Of a stretch of 34,825 nt of DNA, positions 10,355-18,165 are shown piece by piece. Both the position numbers and the translations under genes were made by a program. Numbering within the stretch: position 1 is the first letter of the stretch; every line of letters begins with the position of its first letter. The notes beneath the pieces are model-generated. The model was not told the DNA's origin and did not search any database. It worked only from the letters and a program-made list of their open reading frames with translations. The DNA comes from a virus (Duplodnaviria > Heunggongvirae > Uroviricota > Caudoviricetes): the IMG/VR virus record IMGVR_UViG_2563366951_000001, positions 1 through 34,825 of that record; one strand, written 5' to 3'.

Positions 10355-11350
10355 GTGACCGTGAGAGCACTACTGACCCCTGAAATTGCCCCGCGTATGG
10401 GGATCGTATTGTTCAGGCCAGGTTCAGAGCTGATGCCCCTGTTTATGCAGGGGCGTGTCCTGCTGGAGCCTGAGCCGGAACGTTATTCATCTTTCGCCAG
10501 TGGTGCCGTTCCGGCGGCATCACAACCGCTGGCGGATGATCCTGCCGTTCGGGCCGTGTTCCGCAATGAGGCAGTGATCCGTCGTGCTGGTGGCGTGGAA
10601 TGTCTTGAAAGCTGGTTACTTCGTGAAAAAGGCTGCCAGTGGCCTCATTCCGACTGGCACAGCGAGAACATGACAACAATGCGACACGCTCCGGGCGCAA
10701 TCCGTTTGTGCTGGCACTGCGATAACCAGCTGCGCGATCAGTTCACGGAACGGCTGGAATCAATGGCAACGGATAACAGTGCCCGCTGGGTGTTGTCTGT
10801 TGTGCGTCGGGATCTCGGTTTTGATGACAGTCATGTTGTGACAATGCCGGAACTGTGCTGGTGGCTGATTCGTAATGATCTGGCGGATGCCTTACCGGAA
10901 AGTGCAGCCCGTAAGGCACTGAGATTACCGAAGCCTGTTGTGCTGTCTGTTACCCGGGAAAGTGACCTTGTGCCTTCGGTTCCTGCCACCAGCATCATCC
11001 AGGATAAGGCGAAAAAGGTGCTGGCGCTGAAAGTGGATCCGGAGTCGCCGGAGTCTTTTATGTTACGCCCCAAACGTCGCCGCTGGGTTAATGAAAAGTA
11101 CACGCGCTGGGTTAAGACGCAGCCGTGCGCATGTTGTGGAAAACCTGCTGATGATCCCCACCACCTGATAGGTCACGGTCAGGGTGGAATGGCTACAAAA
11201 GCGCATGACCTCTTTGTGTTGCCTTTGTGCAGAAAGCATCACGACGAGCTGCATGCGGATACCGTGGCATTTGAAGAGAAGTATGGCTCCCAGCTGGAGC
11301 TGATATTTCGTTTTATCGATCGTGCACTGGCAATTGGCGTGCTGGCCTGA
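10355..11350 (+). CDS. DUF968-family protein with C-terminal HNH-like Cys/His cluster
   Basis: C-terminal CACCGKPADDPHHLIGHGQGGMATKAHDLFVLPLCRKHHDELH; conserved position between RusA/KilA-N and Q; start codon uncertain (GTG at 10355 or 10361). Confidence 0.7.
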   Translation: MTVRALLTPEIAPRMGIVLFRPGSELMPLFMQGRVLLEPEPERYSSFASGAVPAASQPLADDPAVRAVFRNEAVIRRAGGVECLESWLLREKGCQWPHSDWHSENMTTMRHAPGAIRLCWHCDNQLRDQFTERLESMATDNSARWVLSVVRRDLGFDDSHVVTMPELCWWLIRNDLADALPESAARKALRLPKPVVLSVTRESDLVPSVPATSIIQDKAKKVLALKVDPESPESFMLRPKRRRWVNEKYTRWVKTQPCACCGKPADDPHHLIGHGQGGMATKAHDLFVLPLCRKHHDELHADTVAFEEKYGSQLELIFRFIDRALAIGVLA

Positions 11351-11367
11351 TTTTGTGGAGAAAGTTG

Positions 11368-11709
11368 ATGCGTGATATGTATGAAGTATTGGACCGCTGG
11401 GGTGCATGGGCTGCAGCAGATAACAGTGGTGTGGACTGGCAGCCTGTTGCTGCAGGGTTTAAAGGTTTACTACCTCATGGAAAGAAAACACGCCAACAAT
11501 GCGATGATGATGAAGGAATCATGATTGACAGCTGTGTTGCGCGATTGCGGAAATATAAGCCCGAAGAGTATGAGTTGGTTATTGCTCATTTTGTTATCGG
11601 CATCTCACTAAGAACTATTGCAAAGAAGCAGAAGTGTTCTGATGGGACAATAAGAAAAGAGTTGCAAACAGCTCTTGGTTTTCTGGATGGTGTGCTTTCA
11701 ATGTTGTAA
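11368..11709 (+). CDS. Q: antitermination protein Q (Phage_antitermQ family)
   Basis: MRDMYEVLDRWGAWAAADN...AAGFKGLLP...QQCDDDEG matches remembered family members (MRDIQMVLERWGAWAANN...); GGAG SD 7 nt before ATG at 11368 (track start 11353 is TTG). Confidence 0.8.
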   Translation: MRDMYEVLDRWGAWAAADNSGVDWQPVAAGFKGLLPHGKKTRQQCDDDEGIMIDSCVARLRKYKPEEYELVIAHFVIGISLRTIAKKQKCSDGTIRKELQTALGFLDGVLSML

Positions 11710-11714
11710 TATTA

Positions 11715-11737
11715 GGGGGAATTACCCCCCTTTTTTT
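11715..11737 (+). terminator. intrinsic terminator immediately after Q (GGGGG-loop-CCCCC + T7)
   Basis: GGGGGAATTACCCCCC followed by TTTTTTT; the stem also overlaps the last codons (KKGG*) of the convergent minus-strand membrane-protein gene. Confidence 0.6.
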
Positions 11738-12270
11738 CTCTGTTGCTTTAATAAAATTTTAATATTTTGTCTGATTATGATGAGGCAATGTAATAAAAGA
11801 AATACCGTTAGTATTGCAAGCCATACGCAAAATAAGCATGCATATAAATTAGTTGAAAGTCCAATAGTGAATTGTGCAATTGCTGTTGTGATAGAACATA
11901 ATATTGATGTATTAATAAATGAGGATAAATTGTCTAAAGGTTTATAAAGTACACTATCATTGATTTTGTCAATAGGTATACCAGTGGCAATGCTATAAAT
12001 TTCCTTATATTCCTGAGTTGCAAAAACCTTATCGCGTAAATTTATTATGACAAAGGTATGCAGGCTCAATAAAAATGAGCCCACGGAAATAAAACCGGAG
12101 AAGAGATAGCCTCGTAAGTTTTTATGATAAAAATCAAAAAAGTTAACACTTACTTTAGGTGTGTTTCTGTACAATAGGTAAAGTGCAAGCAATGCCAGGA
12201 TCGAGAATGCAAGCAGTGTAAGGTACTGATACCTCAATCTTTTATTTATTAGCCATTCATATAAAGGCAT
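11722..12270 (-). CDS. predicted 4-TM small membrane protein (182 aa), cassette gene 2; unknown function
   Basis: Four hydrophobic helices (LTLLAFSILALLALYLLY; LFSGFISVGSFLLSLHTFVIINL; FINTSILCSITTAIAQFTIGL; LYACLFCVWLAILTVFLLLHCLIII) and basic C-terminus; AT-rich; start overlaps upstream gene stop by 14 nt. Confidence 0.7.
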   Translation of the reverse strand: MPLYEWLINKRLRYQYLTLLAFSILALLALYLLYRNTPKVSVNFFDFYHKNLRGYLFSGFISVGSFLLSLHTFVIINLRDKVFATQEYKEIYSIATGIPIDKINDSVLYKPLDNLSSFINTSILCSITTAIAQFTIGLSTNLYACLFCVWLAILTVFLLLHCLIIIRQNIKILLKQQRKKGG

Positions 12271-13183
12271 TTTTATTCGTCCCGTTCAGCATTTCTTCTT
12301 TTATCATATCAAAAACAGGGTTTGTTGTATAATTATCGTTTGTCAATCCATTGACTTTATCGGCAATTATATCGAAATCGTATGTTTCAAAAAAAACAGG
12401 GCAGTTCATAAAATCAATGGTTTTTTCTATTCCTGCATGGTTTACTGCAATAACCTGTGCTTTAGCAACTCCACTCATAGAATTATAAATATTTGAAAGA
12501 TTCTGAGATAGTTGTTGCACTTTTGTTCTGTCGCTAGAATTAAAATTCATATCTATTGTGGTGGTGTTAACAAATTGTTCAAGCGCAGTCATTGGTCCAC
12601 CTTTAAAATCTATATAATTAAATTTAAAGCTTGTGCTTTTAATCTCTTTGAATTGACATAAAACACTCTGAATGTTGTTTTTATTTGTCATAAGGCTGAA
12701 AGTCAGTCTTTCTTTGTATTTTTTATTTATTGCAGTTACTTCTTTTTGTTTTGGTTTATCACCAAGTTTTTTTATTTCTTCTTTATTTTGATTTCTGATA
12801 AATTCATTACTTATTGTTTCTAAATGAGAAAAGAGAGTGTTCAGACTGCATGAACCGTGGTGATACATATAGAGACCAGAAAGATTAGATTTTTTAATTA
12901 AGAAAAAGTTGAAATTAGCAAGTTTGTCACTTCCTTGAAGATCTTCAATTTTAAGCTGGAATTTACCATCAACAAATTGCGACTTACAGTTCTTTTTTTG
13001 GTTTCTGAATGTGACAACTAATCCATAATAGAAATCATTCACATCCGAAATGAGAATTTTACGAGTATAGTCTGTGCGACTGTGTTCTCTGTTTGATGCG
13101 TTGATAAAAGCATTCATTACGTCAACGGTATTAATATTTTTGTTATTGTTATTTATTGTAAATCCTATGCTTCTAACTTTCAT
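12257..13183 (-). CDS. hypothetical soluble protein (308 aa), cassette gene 1; unknown function
   Basis: Long AT-rich ORF, Asn/Lys-rich, no TM segments, no P-loop, HEPN or PD-(D/E)xK motif recognisable by eye; antisense to the flanking phage operons. Confidence 0.7.
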   Translation of the reverse strand: MKVRSIGFTINNNNKNINTVDVMNAFINASNREHSRTDYTRKILISDVNDFYYGLVVTFRNQKKNCKSQFVDGKFQLKIEDLQGSDKLANFNFFLIKKSNLSGLYMYHHGSCSLNTLFSHLETISNEFIRNQNKEEIKKLGDKPKQKEVTAINKKYKERLTFSLMTNKNNIQSVLCQFKEIKSTSFKFNYIDFKGGPMTALEQFVNTTTIDMNFNSSDRTKVQQLSQNLSNIYNSMSGVAKAQVIAVNHAGIEKTIDFMNCPVFFETYDFDIIADKVNGLTNDNYTTNPVFDMIKEEMLNGTNKNAFI

Positions 13184-13301
13184 GTGTATTCCAGGACCGA
13201 CTAAAGATAGCGAGAATGGGGACGCATAGTTTATAAAAATCCTAACGCGTACGCAAAAAGTATTATATCGTGTTAAGAGTGGTTACTTCGCCACACAACT
13301 T

Positions 13302-13326
13302 AAACCCGCCGCTGAGCGGTTTTTTT
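13302..13326 (+). terminator. possible short intrinsic terminator (tR-prime-like) upstream of late-region genes
   Basis: AAACCCGCCGCTGAGCGGTTTTTTT: short GC stem CCGC/GCGG followed by T7, flanked by an A-tract. Confidence 0.4.
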
Positions 13327-13447
13327 GTACCTGTAAACCTTGTGCAGTACAGTAAACACGCTGGTGGTCGTGAATACTGGCTTTTTATCTTGCTGGCTTT
13401 TTAGACAAGAGTTATTGGTATGTCATGTTAACCAGAAGGGAAAAGAC

Positions 13448-13651
13448 ATGCTAAAACAGCAAGATATGACAGAAACCGCCGCCGCAGTCCTTCATTTCTT
13501 ACCTGCTGACAAGTGGGTAACGCCACGCATGATGACGAGAACTACCGGAGTAAGCGAAGCCCGGTGCCAGTTAATACTGACTCAGTTAGTTCTGGCGGGT
13601 CTGGCGAAGGATAACGGCGGGTACGGGAATAAATTCAGACGCTGCCAGTAA
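13448..13651 (+). CDS. hypothetical small protein (67 aa), possibly DNA-binding
   Basis: ATG at 13448 with GAAGGGA SD; track start 13340 is TTG and unlikely; no confident domain. Confidence 0.45.
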   Translation: MLKQQDMTETAAAVLHFLPADKWVTPRMMTRTTGVSEARCQLILTQLVLAGLAKDNGGYGNKFRRCQ

Positions 13652-13801
13652 TGGCGGTTTCCTGCTGTGAAAATGGGCGGCTGGTGGGTGTTGGTAGCAC
13701 CTGCCAGCCATTCGCTCATGCTTACTGGTCACAAGCGAACCACGGCCCACTGCTTTAGCGCAAAAGCAGAGTGAGCCTACCAGAGTTACGCTTACTGATC
13801 C

Positions 13802-15260: not shown

Positions 15261-15737
15261 ATGCAGGCACTAAATTCCCAGCGTAAAGCTTTCCTTGATA
15301 TGGTGGCATGGTCAGAAGGAACGGATAACGGGCGACAACCGACACGTAACCACGGTTATGACGTTATTGTTGGTGGTGAACTGTTTACTGATTACTCCGA
15401 TCATCCTCGCAAACTTGTCACGCTAAACTCCAAACTCAAATCAACAGCCGCCGGACGTTACCAGCTTCTTTCACGTTGGTGGGATGCTTACCGTAAACAG
15501 CTTGGTTTGAAAGACTTCTCCCCCAAAAGCCAGGACGCTGTGGCATTGCAGCAGATTAAAGAACGTGGCGCTTTACCGATGATTGATCGTGGTGATATTC
15601 GTCAGGCTATCGACCGTTGCAGCAATATCTGGGCTTCGTTGCCGGGCGCTGGTTACGGTCAGTATGAACATAAAATTGGTGACCTGATTGCCAGGTTTAA
15701 AGAGGTTGGCGGGGTGGTAAATGAAGTTGAGCTATAA
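15261..15737 (+). CDS. R: endolysin, lambda R-like lytic transglycosylase
   Basis: Near-identical over most of its length to lambda R as remembered (NSQRKAFLDMVAWSEGTDNGRQPTRNHGYDVIVGGELFTDYSDHPRKLVTLN...). Confidence 0.95.
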   Translation: MQALNSQRKAFLDMVAWSEGTDNGRQPTRNHGYDVIVGGELFTDYSDHPRKLVTLNSKLKSTAAGRYQLLSRWWDAYRKQLGLKDFSPKSQDAVALQQIKERGALPMIDRGDIRQAIDRCSNIWASLPGAGYGQYEHKIGDLIARFKEVGGVVNEVEL

Positions 15738-16182
15738 GCTAGTTATCGCTGCTTTCTTCGTTACTATTATTGGTTCTTTCATCTGGTCAGCGAATCATTA
15801 CCACAATCAAGCCATTGAATACAAAAAGCAGCGCGACGAAAACGCTATGGCATTACATTCGGCTATGGCGACGATCTCTGATATGCAGAAGCGTCAACGT
15901 GACGTAGCTGAACTTGACGCCAGATACACAAAGGAGCTTGCTGATGCTAACACGACTCTCGAAAGTCTCCGTACTGATGTCTCTGCTGGTCGTAAACGCT
16001 TGCAAATCGCCGCCACCTGTGCAAAGTCAACGACCGGAGCCAGCGGCATGGGCTATGGAGAAAGTCCAAGACTTACAGCTGATGCTGAACTCAATTATTA
16101 CCGCCTCCGAAGTGGGATCGACAAGATAACTGCACAGGTTAACTACTTGCAGGAGTACATCAAGACACAGTGCCAGAAATGA
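15721..16182 (+). CDS. Rz: i-spanin Rz
   Basis: N-terminal TM anchor then coiled-coil; AVNHY..NAI.YK.QRD...MQ.RQRDVA.LDA.YTKELADA matches lambda Rz pattern; overlaps end of R. Confidence 0.9.
   Translation: MKLSYKLVIAAFFVTIIGSFIWSANHYHNQAIEYKKQRDENAMALHSAMATISDMQKRQRDVAELDARYTKELADANTTLESLRTDVSAGRKRLQIAATCAKSTTGASGMGYGESPRLTADAELNYYRLRSGIDKITAQVNYLQEYIKTQCQK
15944..16129 (+). CDS. Rz1: o-spanin Rz1 (lipoprotein), embedded in +1 frame of Rz
   Basis: AAGGAG SD 7 nt before ATG at 15944; signal peptide with lipobox-like VVNAC and proline-rich mature region (KSPPPVQSQRPEPAAWAME) like lambda Rz1. Confidence 0.8.
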   Translation: MLTRLSKVSVLMSLLVVNACKSPPPVQSQRPEPAAWAMEKVQDLQLMLNSIITASEVGSTR

Positions 16183-16254
16183 ATCTATAGATGACACTCC
16201 ACGTTCGTATAAGATAATGCTAAATTACTATTAGCTTAATCACAGGAGACGGAC

Positions 16255-17118
16255 ATGGAAAGAGGTGTGGTATTTAGTGCATGCGAATTACTTAAAACCG
16301 AGGATGGAAAAGGCATCCGTACAGGTAAATGGATTAGTCAATTAGAAATAAACTATCTATGTCTTTATTGGGATAAACTAGTTTCACCCACTAATAATAT
16401 TATACATACAGCATTAAATAACGAGGATGAATTAGAAAAATGTGGATTGCTAACCAGACCTGTATATAGACATCATGGTTGTTTTGATGGCCAATATATG
16501 GCTGATTTTTATGCTGAAACTCATGCCAAAACAATAGATATACTTAGGCATGCGGATTCTTCTGTCGATTGGCGCATGCATTTTTTAAGTGACCAAATAA
16601 ACTTGGTGCCTGAATTATCTAGAACCTCAGAAGTGATACGTTTTGAGCTAGCAAATTTATTACCCGTTCCCACAGAAGATGTGCACCTACATGATATTCT
16701 TGATTTCAAGGAAAGAAGAAAACCTGAATTAATCGCTTTACATGAATATCTTGATGAGCTTTACTTGGAAATAAAACGTTCTGGTGATATCAATCTTCAG
16801 AAAGCAAAAGCTCTTTCTAATCTTAAACAAGCAATAAAGGATATTGAACGCTTAAATTGTGAAGTGTGGAAAAGTCCAATAAAATTTAGCATCTCTACTT
16901 CCTTTGAGTTCGATTTTTCACAAATATTTACTCTGGCGGGAACTGTTTTATCTATGTCAGTAGATTATCCTTATAATGTTATTGGAGGGGTAAGTAGTTT
17001 TGCTTATTTTTTGGGAGGATGCATAAAAATAAAGCCACAATTTCAACAAGTGTTATCATTAGGTAATGATAAATTAGTTTACATAAGCAAAGGAAAATCG
17101 GAGGGTATTATTTCCTGA
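16255..17118 (+). CDS. hypothetical protein (287 aa), AT-rich moron downstream of lysis cassette
   Basis: Strong AGGAGA SD before ATG; sharply AT-rich versus flanks; no recognisable motif by eye. Confidence 0.7.
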   Translation: MERGVVFSACELLKTEDGKGIRTGKWISQLEINYLCLYWDKLVSPTNNIIHTALNNEDELEKCGLLTRPVYRHHGCFDGQYMADFYAETHAKTIDILRHADSSVDWRMHFLSDQINLVPELSRTSEVIRFELANLLPVPTEDVHLHDILDFKERRKPELIALHEYLDELYLEIKRSGDINLQKAKALSNLKQAIKDIERLNCEVWKSPIKFSISTSFEFDFSQIFTLAGTVLSMSVDYPYNVIGGVSSFAYFLGGCIKIKPQFQQVLSLGNDKLVYISKGKSEGIIS

Positions 17119-17194
17119 TTTTTGATTCTCATAATCAATGAATGTTTTTTGTGAATATACTTATTTTAACCATATAAATAATCAAGGTAATAAA

Positions 17195-17545
17195 GTGCCT
17201 CCTCGTATCCCGAAAGCCTGCCGTGCTCGAGGTTGCCGTAATACCACCACAGACCCGTCAGGCTACTGCGAAAGCCACAAAAGCGAAGGCTGGAAGCAAT
17301 ACAAGTCGGGACAATCCCGTCATCAGCGCGGTTATGGTTCTAAGTGGGATGTTATCCGTGTGCGTGTGCTGCAACGTGACAAAGGCCTGTGTCAGTTATG
17401 TCTGCGTGCTGGTGTGGCGCGTGAAGCGAAAACCGTTGACCACATCATCCCTAAAGCACATGGCGGCACTGATGCCGACAGTAATCTGCAGAGTCTGTGC
17501 TGGCCGTGTCATAAGGCGAAGACGGCCCGTGAACGGTTGAAGTGA
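17195..17545 (+). CDS. HNH endonuclease (terminase-associated)
   Basis: Cys/His-rich: CRARGC...C.SH, DHIIPKAHGGTDADSNLQSLCWPCHKAKT; start taken at GTG 17195 (AAGG SD) because the ATG at 17138 adds an AT-rich 19-aa extension. Confidence 0.8.
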   Translation: MPPRIPKACRARGCRNTTTDPSGYCESHKSEGWKQYKSGQSRHQRGYGSKWDVIRVRVLQRDKGLCQLCLRAGVAREAKTVDHIIPKAHGGTDADSNLQSLCWPCHKAKTARERLK

Positions 17546-17571
17546 TAATGATTCTCAACTGCCTGAGGGGA

Positions 17572-17631
17572 GGGGCGGGTCAAATCTCTGTGACCTGACG
17601 TCTTCCGGACTGCCCGCCCCATCGTTTTTTT
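17572..17631 (+). other. GC-rich 8-bp inverted repeat with about 33-nt loop followed by T-tract; terminator or cos-proximal structure
   Basis: GGGGCGGG (17572-17579) pairs with CCCGCCCC (17613-17620), followed by ATCGTTTTTTT; sits between HNH and terS where HK97-type cos sites lie. Confidence 0.35.
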
Positions 17632-17670
17632 ATACCCGCGAAAAATGAAATTTAACCAGGAGTGCCGCAT

Positions 17671-18165
17671 ATGGCTGGAACGGCGGGGCGTTCCGGGCGT
17701 CGCCCCAAGCCAACGGCGCGCAAGGCGCTGGCCGGAAACCCCGGCAAGCGAGCCCTGAATAAAGATGAACCTGTTTTTACGCCCATCAAAGGTGTTGAGC
17801 CACCGGAGTGGTTCGCTGAAGAAGATCTCCCTCTCGCCACGATCATGTGGCAACTGACAACTAAAGAACTCTGCGGTCAGGGCCTGCTGTGCGTGACTGA
17901 CCTCGCAGTGCTTGAGCGGTGGTGTGTGGCCTATGAGTTCTGGCGACGTGCCGTGAAAAATATTGCCAGACAGGGCAACACCATCACCGGTGCAATGGGC
18001 GGTATGGTCAAAAATCCGGAGCTGACCGCCAAAAAAGAACAGGAGTCCGAGATGAGCAGTACGGGGGCAATGCTCGGACTCGACCCCAGCAGCCGCCAGC
18101 GTCTGATTGGCCTGGCGGGGAAGAAGAAAGCCACTAACCCGTTTCTGAAAATCATCGAATCATGA
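17671..18165 (+). CDS. terminase small subunit (P27-family-like)
   Basis: Position between HNH and large terminase; AGGAG SD 9 nt before ATG at 17671 (track start 17662 is GTG); basic N-terminus. Confidence 0.8.

Follow-up and report, generated by a model that had tools for sequence, protein, structure and literature searches.

An AT-rich DUF6236 cassette as exchangeable prophage cargo between the lysis and packaging genes of an SfV-like phage of Escherichia coli

What kind of gene occupies a sharply AT-rich stretch between the last lysis gene and the HNH/terminase module of a prophage, and what might its product do there? The locus lies in IMG/VR record IMGVR_UViG_2563366951_000001, a Caudoviricetes sequence analysed here over its full 34,825 nucleotides (the window), where a single 287-amino acid (aa) open reading frame (ORF) follows the spanin gene Rz. 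The first-pass annotation, made from the sequence alone, had taken this ORF for a single-gene moron of foreign composition and had proposed a role as defence or host-fitness cargo, a reading that we treat as a hypothesis. We find that the cassette is a prophage moron whose product belongs to a DUF family already on record, DUF6236; among the roles considered for its product, we tentatively favour one in conflict or defence.

The slot between Rz and the HNH gene

In the sense of Hendrix and Juhala, a moron is an autonomous extra gene inserted between conserved phage genes, and the cassette matches this description both in its presence or absence at precise junctions (16180 and 17196) and in its foreign composition. 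The program-made ORF list places the gene at 16255-17118 on the + strand, with an ATG start preceded by a Shine-Dalgarno sequence, AGGAGA (16244-16249), from which 5 nt separate it; homologues align from the first residue with the N-terminus MERGVV, so the start at 16255 is correct. The ORF has a GC content of 0.338 and a third-position GC content (GC3) of 0.226, compared with 0.47-0.58 and 0.43-0.69 in the neighbouring R, Rz, HNH, TerS, TerL and portal genes (GC 0.48 for R, 0.47 for Rz, 0.56 for HNH, 0.58 for TerS and 0.54 for TerL). The AT-rich block coincides exactly with 16183-17194 (1,012 nt), bounded by the stop codon of Rz and the true start of HNH, and its GC of 0.328 contrasts with 0.49 and 0.55 in the flanks (z = -2.75 among all windows of the same size). 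Only 2.5% of such windows are as AT-rich, nearly all of them inside one other island at about 11250-13680. The coordinates, Shine-Dalgarno sequence and composition given for the ORF in the first-pass annotation thus agree with ours.

We compared the slot by BLAST across seven loci, from phages vB_EcoM-720R4, vB_EcoM-689R6 and SfV and from E. coli CT29, KN13-4, O157:H7 FRIK944 and TUM13936. In all seven, homology on the right restarts at 17196, where the HNH start codon has its second base; on the left, in CT29, which shares the Rz allele of the window, it stops at 16180, within the Rz stop codon. The slot is empty in SfV and vB_EcoM-720R4, where 26 nt lead from Rz1 to an HNH gene beginning ATG-PPRTPKACR, and the other five loci hold different cargo: an unrelated AT-rich ORF for a 168-aa hypothetical protein in vB_EcoM-689R6, KilA-N with a hypothetical gene and Gp49 in CT29, DUF6979 with a small ORF in KN13-4, the bor homologue iss in FRIK944 and one small reverse ORF in TUM13936. 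A GrlR-family gene was listed at the slot in one further genome. In FRIK944, iss lies on the opposite strand between rzpD and the same HNH gene, which bears out the earlier placement of the ORF in a bor/lom-type accessory slot after Rz. The exact junctions and the varied contents, iss included, identify the slot as the bor/iss accessory slot.

The presence/absence polymorphism that had been proposed as a check across related prophages was therefore found, and the gene is neither shared by all relatives nor of backbone-like composition. Together, the low GC and GC3 and the replacement polymorphism at exact junctions uphold the view of the ORF as a single-gene moron, and we regard 16183-17194 as almost certainly a self-contained cargo cassette by its sequence features. 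All of the alternative cargos (loci L001-L003 and L092-L095) end on the right exactly at the start codon of HNH; the relatives have ATG there and the window has GTG. This shared boundary implies that recombination has recurred at, or that selection has acted for, that exact position.

The same comparison bears on the start of the HNH gene. An in-frame ATG at 17138 lies 19 codons upstream of GTG 17195, and the ORF list had extended the gene to it; the first-pass annotation had suspected that the AT-rich island covered these codons and that the real start was GTG 17195. The breakpoint common to the seven loci, the PGAP annotation of a 351-nt HNH gene from the position equivalent to 17195, and the ATG-PPRTPKACR start at that position in relatives with empty slots all place the start where it had been suspected. 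We therefore rejected the N-terminal extension from ATG 17138, since orthologues start at the equivalent of 17195 and homology begins only at 17196, and we assign the 19 codons to the cassette, not to HNH. The HNH start is corrected to GTG 17195.

The left flank of the cassette is formed by Rz (15721-16182, + strand; Pfam Phage_lysis, E = 7.6e-39), the i-spanin and last gene of the lysis cassette. Embedded in it in the +1 frame is an ORF (15914-16129) with a lipobox-like LVVNAC, which is probably the Rz1 o-spanin, and with it the lysis cassette ahead of the slot appears to be complete. The right flank is the HNH endonuclease gene (17195-17545, + strand; supported by Pfam HNH, the PGAP coordinates and the homology breakpoint at 17196), followed by genes for a P27-family TerS and TerL. 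The window as a whole is an SfV-like myovirus prophage, and E. coli ECONIH5 carries a sequence 100% identical to it over 16190-17195 in a prophage adjoining icd, the e14 site. There the gene order runs from Q through two reverse-strand AT-rich genes, a DNA methylase, holin, endolysin, Rz/Rz1, DUF6236 and HNH to a P27-type TerS, TerL, portal, HK97-type head genes and a contractile tail. An IS630-like element, ISEc33, is inserted between endolysin and Rz in the ECONIH5 prophage (L004, 16418-17449); the window lacks it and is otherwise identical, so that it derives from another strain or from a copy without the interruption.

Among complete E. coli genomes, the gene, listed in RefSeq as WP_000439452.1, occurs in 32 of 5,426 (0.6%), with all copies at least 99.5% identical. 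Thirty-one of the 32 carriers have the same R-Rz and HNH-TerS flanks, and the ORF is full length and intact in 31 of 32.

The second AT-rich island of the window (about 11250-13680; GC 0.26-0.35) lies downstream of the Q antiterminator gene and holds two - strand genes, at 12257-13183 and 11722-12270, encoding proteins of 308 aa (phrog_2802, function unassigned there) and 182 aa. Neither protein matched Pfam or PADLOC, and a kinship of the 308-aa protein with DUF6236 was rejected after hhalign against the family returned no relation.

The DUF6236 family, its fold and its settings

The product of the cassette gene (16255-17118) is identical to RefSeq WP_000439452.1, named 'DUF6236 family protein', and matches Pfam DUF6236 (PF19749) at 110.5 bits against a cut-off of 26.2 (E = 1.3e-31), as well as phrog_23128, annotated as of unknown function, over its full length (E = 7e-144). 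All 128 aligned relatives match Pfam DUF6236 too. A profile search of 1.84 billion representatives returned 1,730 clusters at E <= 0.001 and 397 at E <= 1e-30; among the best 150 representatives nearly all are 270-310 aa long with a single matched stretch, which indicates that DUF6236 stands alone, without fusions. The window protein is a full member by score, by its standalone architecture of about 285 aa and by its possession of all the nearly invariant motifs, and it differs in nothing of kind from a family that has no known function and no solved structure. The remark in the first-pass annotation that the product has no recognisable motif thus needs amending in one respect, the Pfam match, and stands in another, for DUF6236 brings with it neither a known function nor a catalytic motif.

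Nearly invariant residues in the 128-sequence alignment are R3, G4, L37-Y38-W39-D40, P45, W106, L132, P137, P139, L149, F151, K152, Y170, D178 and Y276, among which we recognised no catalytic motif; the corresponding family motifs RG, LYWD..P, W, LPxP, ILxFKxRR, LDELY and the C-terminal Y are all present in the window protein. Pairwise dN/dS values of 0.07-0.29 among family members indicate purifying selection. An AlphaFold2 model built with the 128 sequences (pLDDT 85.8, pTM 0.84) predicts three parts. Codons 1-140 (16255-16674, + strand) would form an N-terminal alpha/beta domain, modelled at pLDDT of about 90-98, that carries the motifs R3-G4, L37-Y38-W39-D40, P45, W106 and L136-P137-x-P139. 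Three long helices predicted at codons 145-204 (16687-16866, + strand) make up a long helical hairpin with the motifs ILxFKxRR (147-155), LDELY (166-170) and D178, and a C-terminal beta-sheet is predicted to follow, broken by a low-confidence excursion at aa 232-253 (pLDDT <50).

The hydrophobic maximum of family members always lies at about 80-84% of protein length. It corresponds in the window protein to aa 221-257 (codons at 16915-17025, + strand; delimited by KD19, AlphaFold2 and Hessa dG), which comprise two uncharged, marginally hydrophobic stretches rich in Gly, Ala, Ser and Thr with a short polar loop between them. The region varies in length and sequence among members and keeps its composition. 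Inspection of the N-terminus MERGVVFSACELLK by eye showed neither a hydrophobic signal sequence nor a lipobox.

Profile and structure searches, proposed earlier as a way to identify the product, led to DUF6236 and phrog_23128 only, with no relative in PDB or BFVD. Searches of Pfam, PADLOC, PHROG, NCBIfam, PDB and structure collections turned up no structural or housekeeping protein of phages as a homologue. The window protein matched nothing in NCBIfam or in PADLOC-DB v2 (none at E up to 1), and PADLOC gave only scattered single matches at E of 0.001 or weaker among the 128 relatives. Sequence-profile searches of PDB with the 37- and 128-sequence profiles returned only 14-3-3 and Rop helices at E > 0.3, Foldseek against BFVD returned nothing at E <= 0.001, and Rfam returned no match on 15900-17700. 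Weak alignments with GT-A and nucleotidyltransferase-like folds (TM about 0.2) were dismissed as uninformative.

Where the family lives was examined in viral, plasmid and chromosomal sequences. Enterobacteriaceae homologues directly follow spanin genes on the same strand, with HNH/terminase genes or other cargo downstream, in Klebsiella (47% identity), in Enterobacter (52%) and in a distant Enterobacter clade (28-33%). The lysis cassettes upstream nevertheless differ, with GH108, GH19 and Phage_lysozyme endolysins and different holins, four non-homologous types in all. A same-strand lysis gene was found within 1.5 kb upstream at 34 or more of 62 non-redundant IMG/VR loci, a lower bound since the queries comprised only six endolysins, four spanins and two holins. 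Elsewhere, some DUF6236 genes are convergent to endolysin genes or beside an integrase gene; the gene lies between int and the tail fibre gene in Klebsiella phage Mulock and at the end of prophage elements in Vibrio, and it is carried by small Acinetobacter plasmids and large Vibrio plasmids. Orphan chromosomal copies sit among ordinary genes in Pseudoalteromonas and Psychrobacter. A scan of genomes at species level with the 37-sequence alignment found relatives in Alpha-, Beta- and Gammaproteobacteria, Campylobacterota, Desulfobacterota, Nitrospirota, Acidobacteriota, Bacteroidota and one cyanobacterium. DUF6236 genes have a lower GC content than their flanks at nearly all of 68 viral loci and at about nine-tenths of 49 genomic loci from many phyla.

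A conserved neighbour gene outside the Enterobacteria was sought and rejected, as no family occurred in more than 2 of 150 neighbouring ORFs. A minority of genomic neighbours are restriction-modification, PD-Lambda-1, PD-Lambda-5, PIN or integrase genes. On Acinetobacter lwoffii plasmid pALWED1.3, 21 nt separate the end of an AbiD/PD-T4-5-like HEPN gene from DUF6236 downstream of it (L146, 3934-5882), and on A. wuhouensis plasmid p6_010062 the divergent neighbour is an AbiEi-like (DUF6088) gene (L149, 394-1800). One clade has a further conserved ORF, for about 50 aa with two transmembrane (TM) segments (MRLMWSGRKFALSFSMLCIGSVLQF... and MSISWYGKKMGSAYLLITIGSFIQFWF...), that begins 1-18 nt past the DUF6236 stop codon (L005, 6889-7047; L054, 5866-6015; also L047, L048, L050-L052, L055-L059 and L062). 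It was missed by the original gene caller and is absent from the window. Given the varied settings and the lack of a recurring neighbour, we take DUF6236 to be standalone mobile-element cargo, which argues against an obligatory role in lysis.

Expression signals of the cassette

A promoter-like region precedes the gene at 16191-16226 on the + strand. The consensus scan returned a -35 hexamer ATGACA (16191-16196), a 16-nt gap and a -10 hexamer GATAAT (16213-16218), with a score of 10/12, and an extended -10 sequence, TGcTAAATT (16218-16226), overlaps GATAAT. The 13-nt element ATAATGCTAAATT (16214-16226) joins the hexamer with the extended -10. About 20 non-redundant homologous cassettes on different phage backbones carry it, with at least 10 of the 13 positions matching and at a distance of 28-33 nt from the start codon, and a variant, TGATAATTT, lies 32-33 nt upstream of the gene in a further clade; the bases around the element diverge. 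Equivalents of ATAATGCTAAATT are present in loci L005, L012, L026-L050 and L053, and the element travels with the gene. By these sequence criteria the cassette appears to be an autonomous expression unit with a putative promoter of its own. Its co-directional position would also lead one to expect late transcription, as inferred from what is known of lambdoid late operons, and no terminator was found between Rz and the gene in the scan.

Translation may be controlled as well. In many homologous leaders a hairpin pairs with the Shine-Dalgarno sequence and is maintained by compensatory changes (CCCC/GGGG, CCTC/GAGG and GACTAC/GTAGTC), which suggests translational control in these cassettes (L005, 5970-6000; L012, L026-L030, L049 and L053-L062). 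The window copy has no strong hairpin of this kind by folding (dG -2.8) over its AGGAGA. The 3' spacer (17119-17194, + strand) contains, by sequence and folding, a weak hairpin, TTGATT/AATCAA (17122-17138), a run of six T (17144-17149) and the AAGG ribosome-binding site of HNH; clear rho-independent terminators are found in the homologous cassettes L012, L017, L040, L043, L049 and L053. A second ATAATGCTAAATT-like copy, GTAATGATAAATT, with two mismatches, lies at 17063-17075, still within the 3'-terminal part of the ORF and about 120 nt before the start of HNH. With three ATAATGCTAAATT-like matches in the window against 0.85 expected, this copy is probably a product of chance in AT-rich DNA, though it could drive HNH and terminase expression.

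What the product may do

We favour, at somewhat less than even confidence, a conflict or defence role of the phage-exclusion or abortive-infection (Abi) type for the DUF6236 product. What recommends it is the cargo signature, the autonomous promoter-like element, the residence of the family on both phages and plasmids, the occasional Abi or TM neighbours and a machine-learning score. In such a scheme the gene would be transcribed in the lysogen from its putative sigma-70 promoter and, during lytic growth, would also be read through in the Q-dependent late transcript. The product would act alone as a conflict protein: the N-terminal alpha/beta domain and helical hairpin may sense or regulate, and the Gly-rich segment at aa 221-257 may execute, by conditional membrane insertion or oligomerisation. 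In sister clades this role appears to be supplemented by the two-TM partner of about 50 aa or by an AbiD-like HEPN neighbour.

The score comes from DefensePredictor (Science 2026, PMC13092281), whose supplements hold the only mentions of DUF6236, PF19749 or WP_000439452 that we found; none occurs in the main text of the literature searched. There the WP_000439452.1 cluster is listed as 'Putative novel defense gene' with a mean log-odds of 7.5, and two other DUF6236 entries have log-odds of 8.6 and 11.0 (PMC13092281). One family member was also cloned: candidate '6236' of Table S6, WP_097421955.1 (289 aa, assembly GCF_003333425.1), was randomly chosen (PMC13092281).

Several observations weigh against a defence role, its proposed mechanism or the autonomy of the cassette. 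The cloned candidate WP_097421955.1, whose identity to the window protein is not established, was scored as not defensive against 24 coliphages, in a validation in which 42 of 94 candidates succeeded and whose authors note that failures may stem from the host, from the phages in the panel or from where the constructs begin and end (PMC13092281). The DefensePredictor score draws on GC content and neighbourhood and so is not independent of the features described here. The Abi-type neighbours are anecdotal, coming from two plasmid types, and no known defence family and no catalytic or effector motif was matched in PADLOC or NCBIfam. No terminator downstream of the ORF passes the scan, the weak AT hairpin and T6 being the only candidates. 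Part of the hydrophobic segment is modelled as a core beta-strand and may simply be buried, and its best 19-residue stretch (Hessa dG +6.5 kcal) falls far short of true TM hydrophobicity.

For the last reason we rejected aa 221-257 as a canonical TM helix. The family median is +5.2 kcal, compared with 1.1-2.6 for the TM helices of Rz and holin and 13.7 for the soluble endolysin, and the median KD19 is 1.47, with values of at least 1.6 in 31 of 128 members. The segment is thus marginally hydrophobic, possibly a membrane-active or oligomerisation segment. A few family members have weak, non-significant matches to Bacteriocin_IIc, SLATT_6 and the PADLOC '2TM effector' (E 0.01-0.1 for these three) and to DUF1269, which are a hint at most of membrane action, and we consider a membrane-acting mechanism unlikely. 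A broader proposal is also doubtful as a whole: that DUF6236 is a new and widespread single-protein exclusion or Abi family with a fold outside PDB, expressed in lysogens from the conserved moron promoter, with a conditionally membrane-active Gly-rich segment, add-on effectors in some clades (the 50-aa two-TM partner or AbiD-like HEPN) and narrow targets such as temperate or related phages, and that the Rz-to-HNH junction is a defence hotspot. Targets that narrow would account for the negative outcome of the 24-phage screen.

Other roles have to be weighed against a conflict role. The slot is shared with iss and bor, which raises the question whether the gene is a lysogenic-conversion or host-fitness factor unrelated to phages, acting in stress tolerance, metabolism or virulence; the promoter-like element would fit expression in the lysogen, and the orphan copies in Pseudoalteromonas and Psychrobacter are also consistent with such a role. 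The single family match of the product and its N-terminus, as read by eye, set it apart from surface proteins such as Bor, Iss and Lom, however, and a Bor/Iss-like surface role is unlikely; it also lacks any enzymatic or regulatory domain, and the family, scattered across many phyla on phages and plasmids, shows no tie to a particular niche. We consider a host-fitness role quite unlikely on balance. Position alone would favour an accessory role in lysis, in which the product serves as a late helper or timer of lysis or of the lysis-to-packaging transition and is kept beside the spanin genes as their partner: the gene is co-directional and directly follows lysis cassettes of four non-homologous endolysin types, the at least 34 of 62 viral loci with a lysis gene upstream fit, no terminator separates it from Rz, and the small two-TM ORF of one clade could be holin- or antiholin-like. 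Yet SfV and 720R4 lyse with empty slots, the cassette has its own conserved promoter element, and DUF6236 is also found convergent to endolysin genes, between int and tail fibre genes, on plasmids and in chromosomes without phage genes. Unrelated cargo such as iss occupies the same slot, so a permissive module junction explains the position; moreover, the protein matched no lysis family in Pfam or PHROG, and its best 19-residue window is much less hydrophobic (+6.5) than those of Rz and holin (1.1-2.6). We regard a role in lysis as still less probable than one in host fitness.

Anti-defence genes are usually small and early. A counter-defence or inter-element competition factor, inhibiting the immunity of the host or of a rival prophage, or satellites and competing phages during lytic growth, would be atypical at 287 aa, with a constitutive-type promoter and at the end of the late lysis genes, and the orphan chromosomal copies are hard to account for in this way. 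Read-through in the late operon, carriage by phages and plasmids alike and the fast-evolving, AT-rich and sporadic nature of the gene would suit such a factor, which would also account for the negative plasmid-borne defence assay; even so, we think it very unlikely. Least probable of all is that the gene benefits neither host nor phage and is a selfish or neutral passenger, whether decaying cargo or of an addiction or toxin-like kind. The rarity of the gene (0.6% of E. coli genomes), the failure of a family member in the defence screen and the lack of a recognisable partner or function would be expected of a passenger, but strong purifying selection (dN/dS 0.07-0.29), intact full-length ORFs in 31 of 32 genomes, a conserved regulatory element and a large, ancient family with conserved motifs and a confident fold are difficult to reconcile with it.

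Several known systems invite comparison with the product, the first of them through the exclusion or abortive-infection role that we favour. RexB, SieA/SieB, HK97 gp15, AbiZ, CBASS 2TM and SLATT effectors are membrane-acting exclusion or abortive-infection proteins, and the likeness of DUF6236 to them would be one of mode only, through the Gly-rich hydrophobic segment and the two-TM partner of one clade; that segment is less hydrophobic than true TM helices, and the protein has a mostly soluble alpha/beta and helical fold. Alpha-pore-forming toxins of the ClyA/AhlC type, with a helical hairpin and a hydrophobic 'tongue', are named among the closest known systems. Lambda bor and E. coli iss share the slot with the cassette, as in FRIK944, and like it are optional, compositionally foreign inserts; independent expression, putative for the cassette, belongs to the same moron pattern. 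They are nevertheless unrelated in sequence and encode small outer-membrane lipoproteins on the opposite strand, whereas the DUF6236 protein has 287 aa and is encoded co-directionally with the late operon; no homology to Bor or Iss, signal peptide or lipobox was found (Pfam returned DUF6236 only, and the N-terminus was inspected by eye). BstA (PMC8585504), the Gifsy prophage defence protein GiPD474 (PMC12724215) and the systems of the P2/P4 hotspots (PMC9122126) are likewise AT-rich, sporadic, single-gene prophage cargo at a fixed variable locus. DUF6236 has no homology to them, is defensive by prediction only and includes one member with a negative result. GiPD474 was in addition rejected as a match because it is an ATPase-domain protein, and the DUF6236 protein has no such domain.

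Whatever the function of the product, the locus is a cargo slot with clean bounds at the stop codon of Rz and the start codon of HNH. Its contents in E. coli alternate between iss/bor, DUF6979, KilA-N with Gp49, DUF6236 and others, and so it could be mined systematically. If DUF6236 does act in defence or exclusion, this would give a function to at least 1,730 clusters at 50% identity, borne by phages and plasmids in many phyla and sharing a fold without a solved relative. If it is indeed a new exclusion family, the junction between Rz and HNH in SfV/HK97-type E. coli prophages would rank with the P2 and P4 loci as a hotspot to mine for defence genes.

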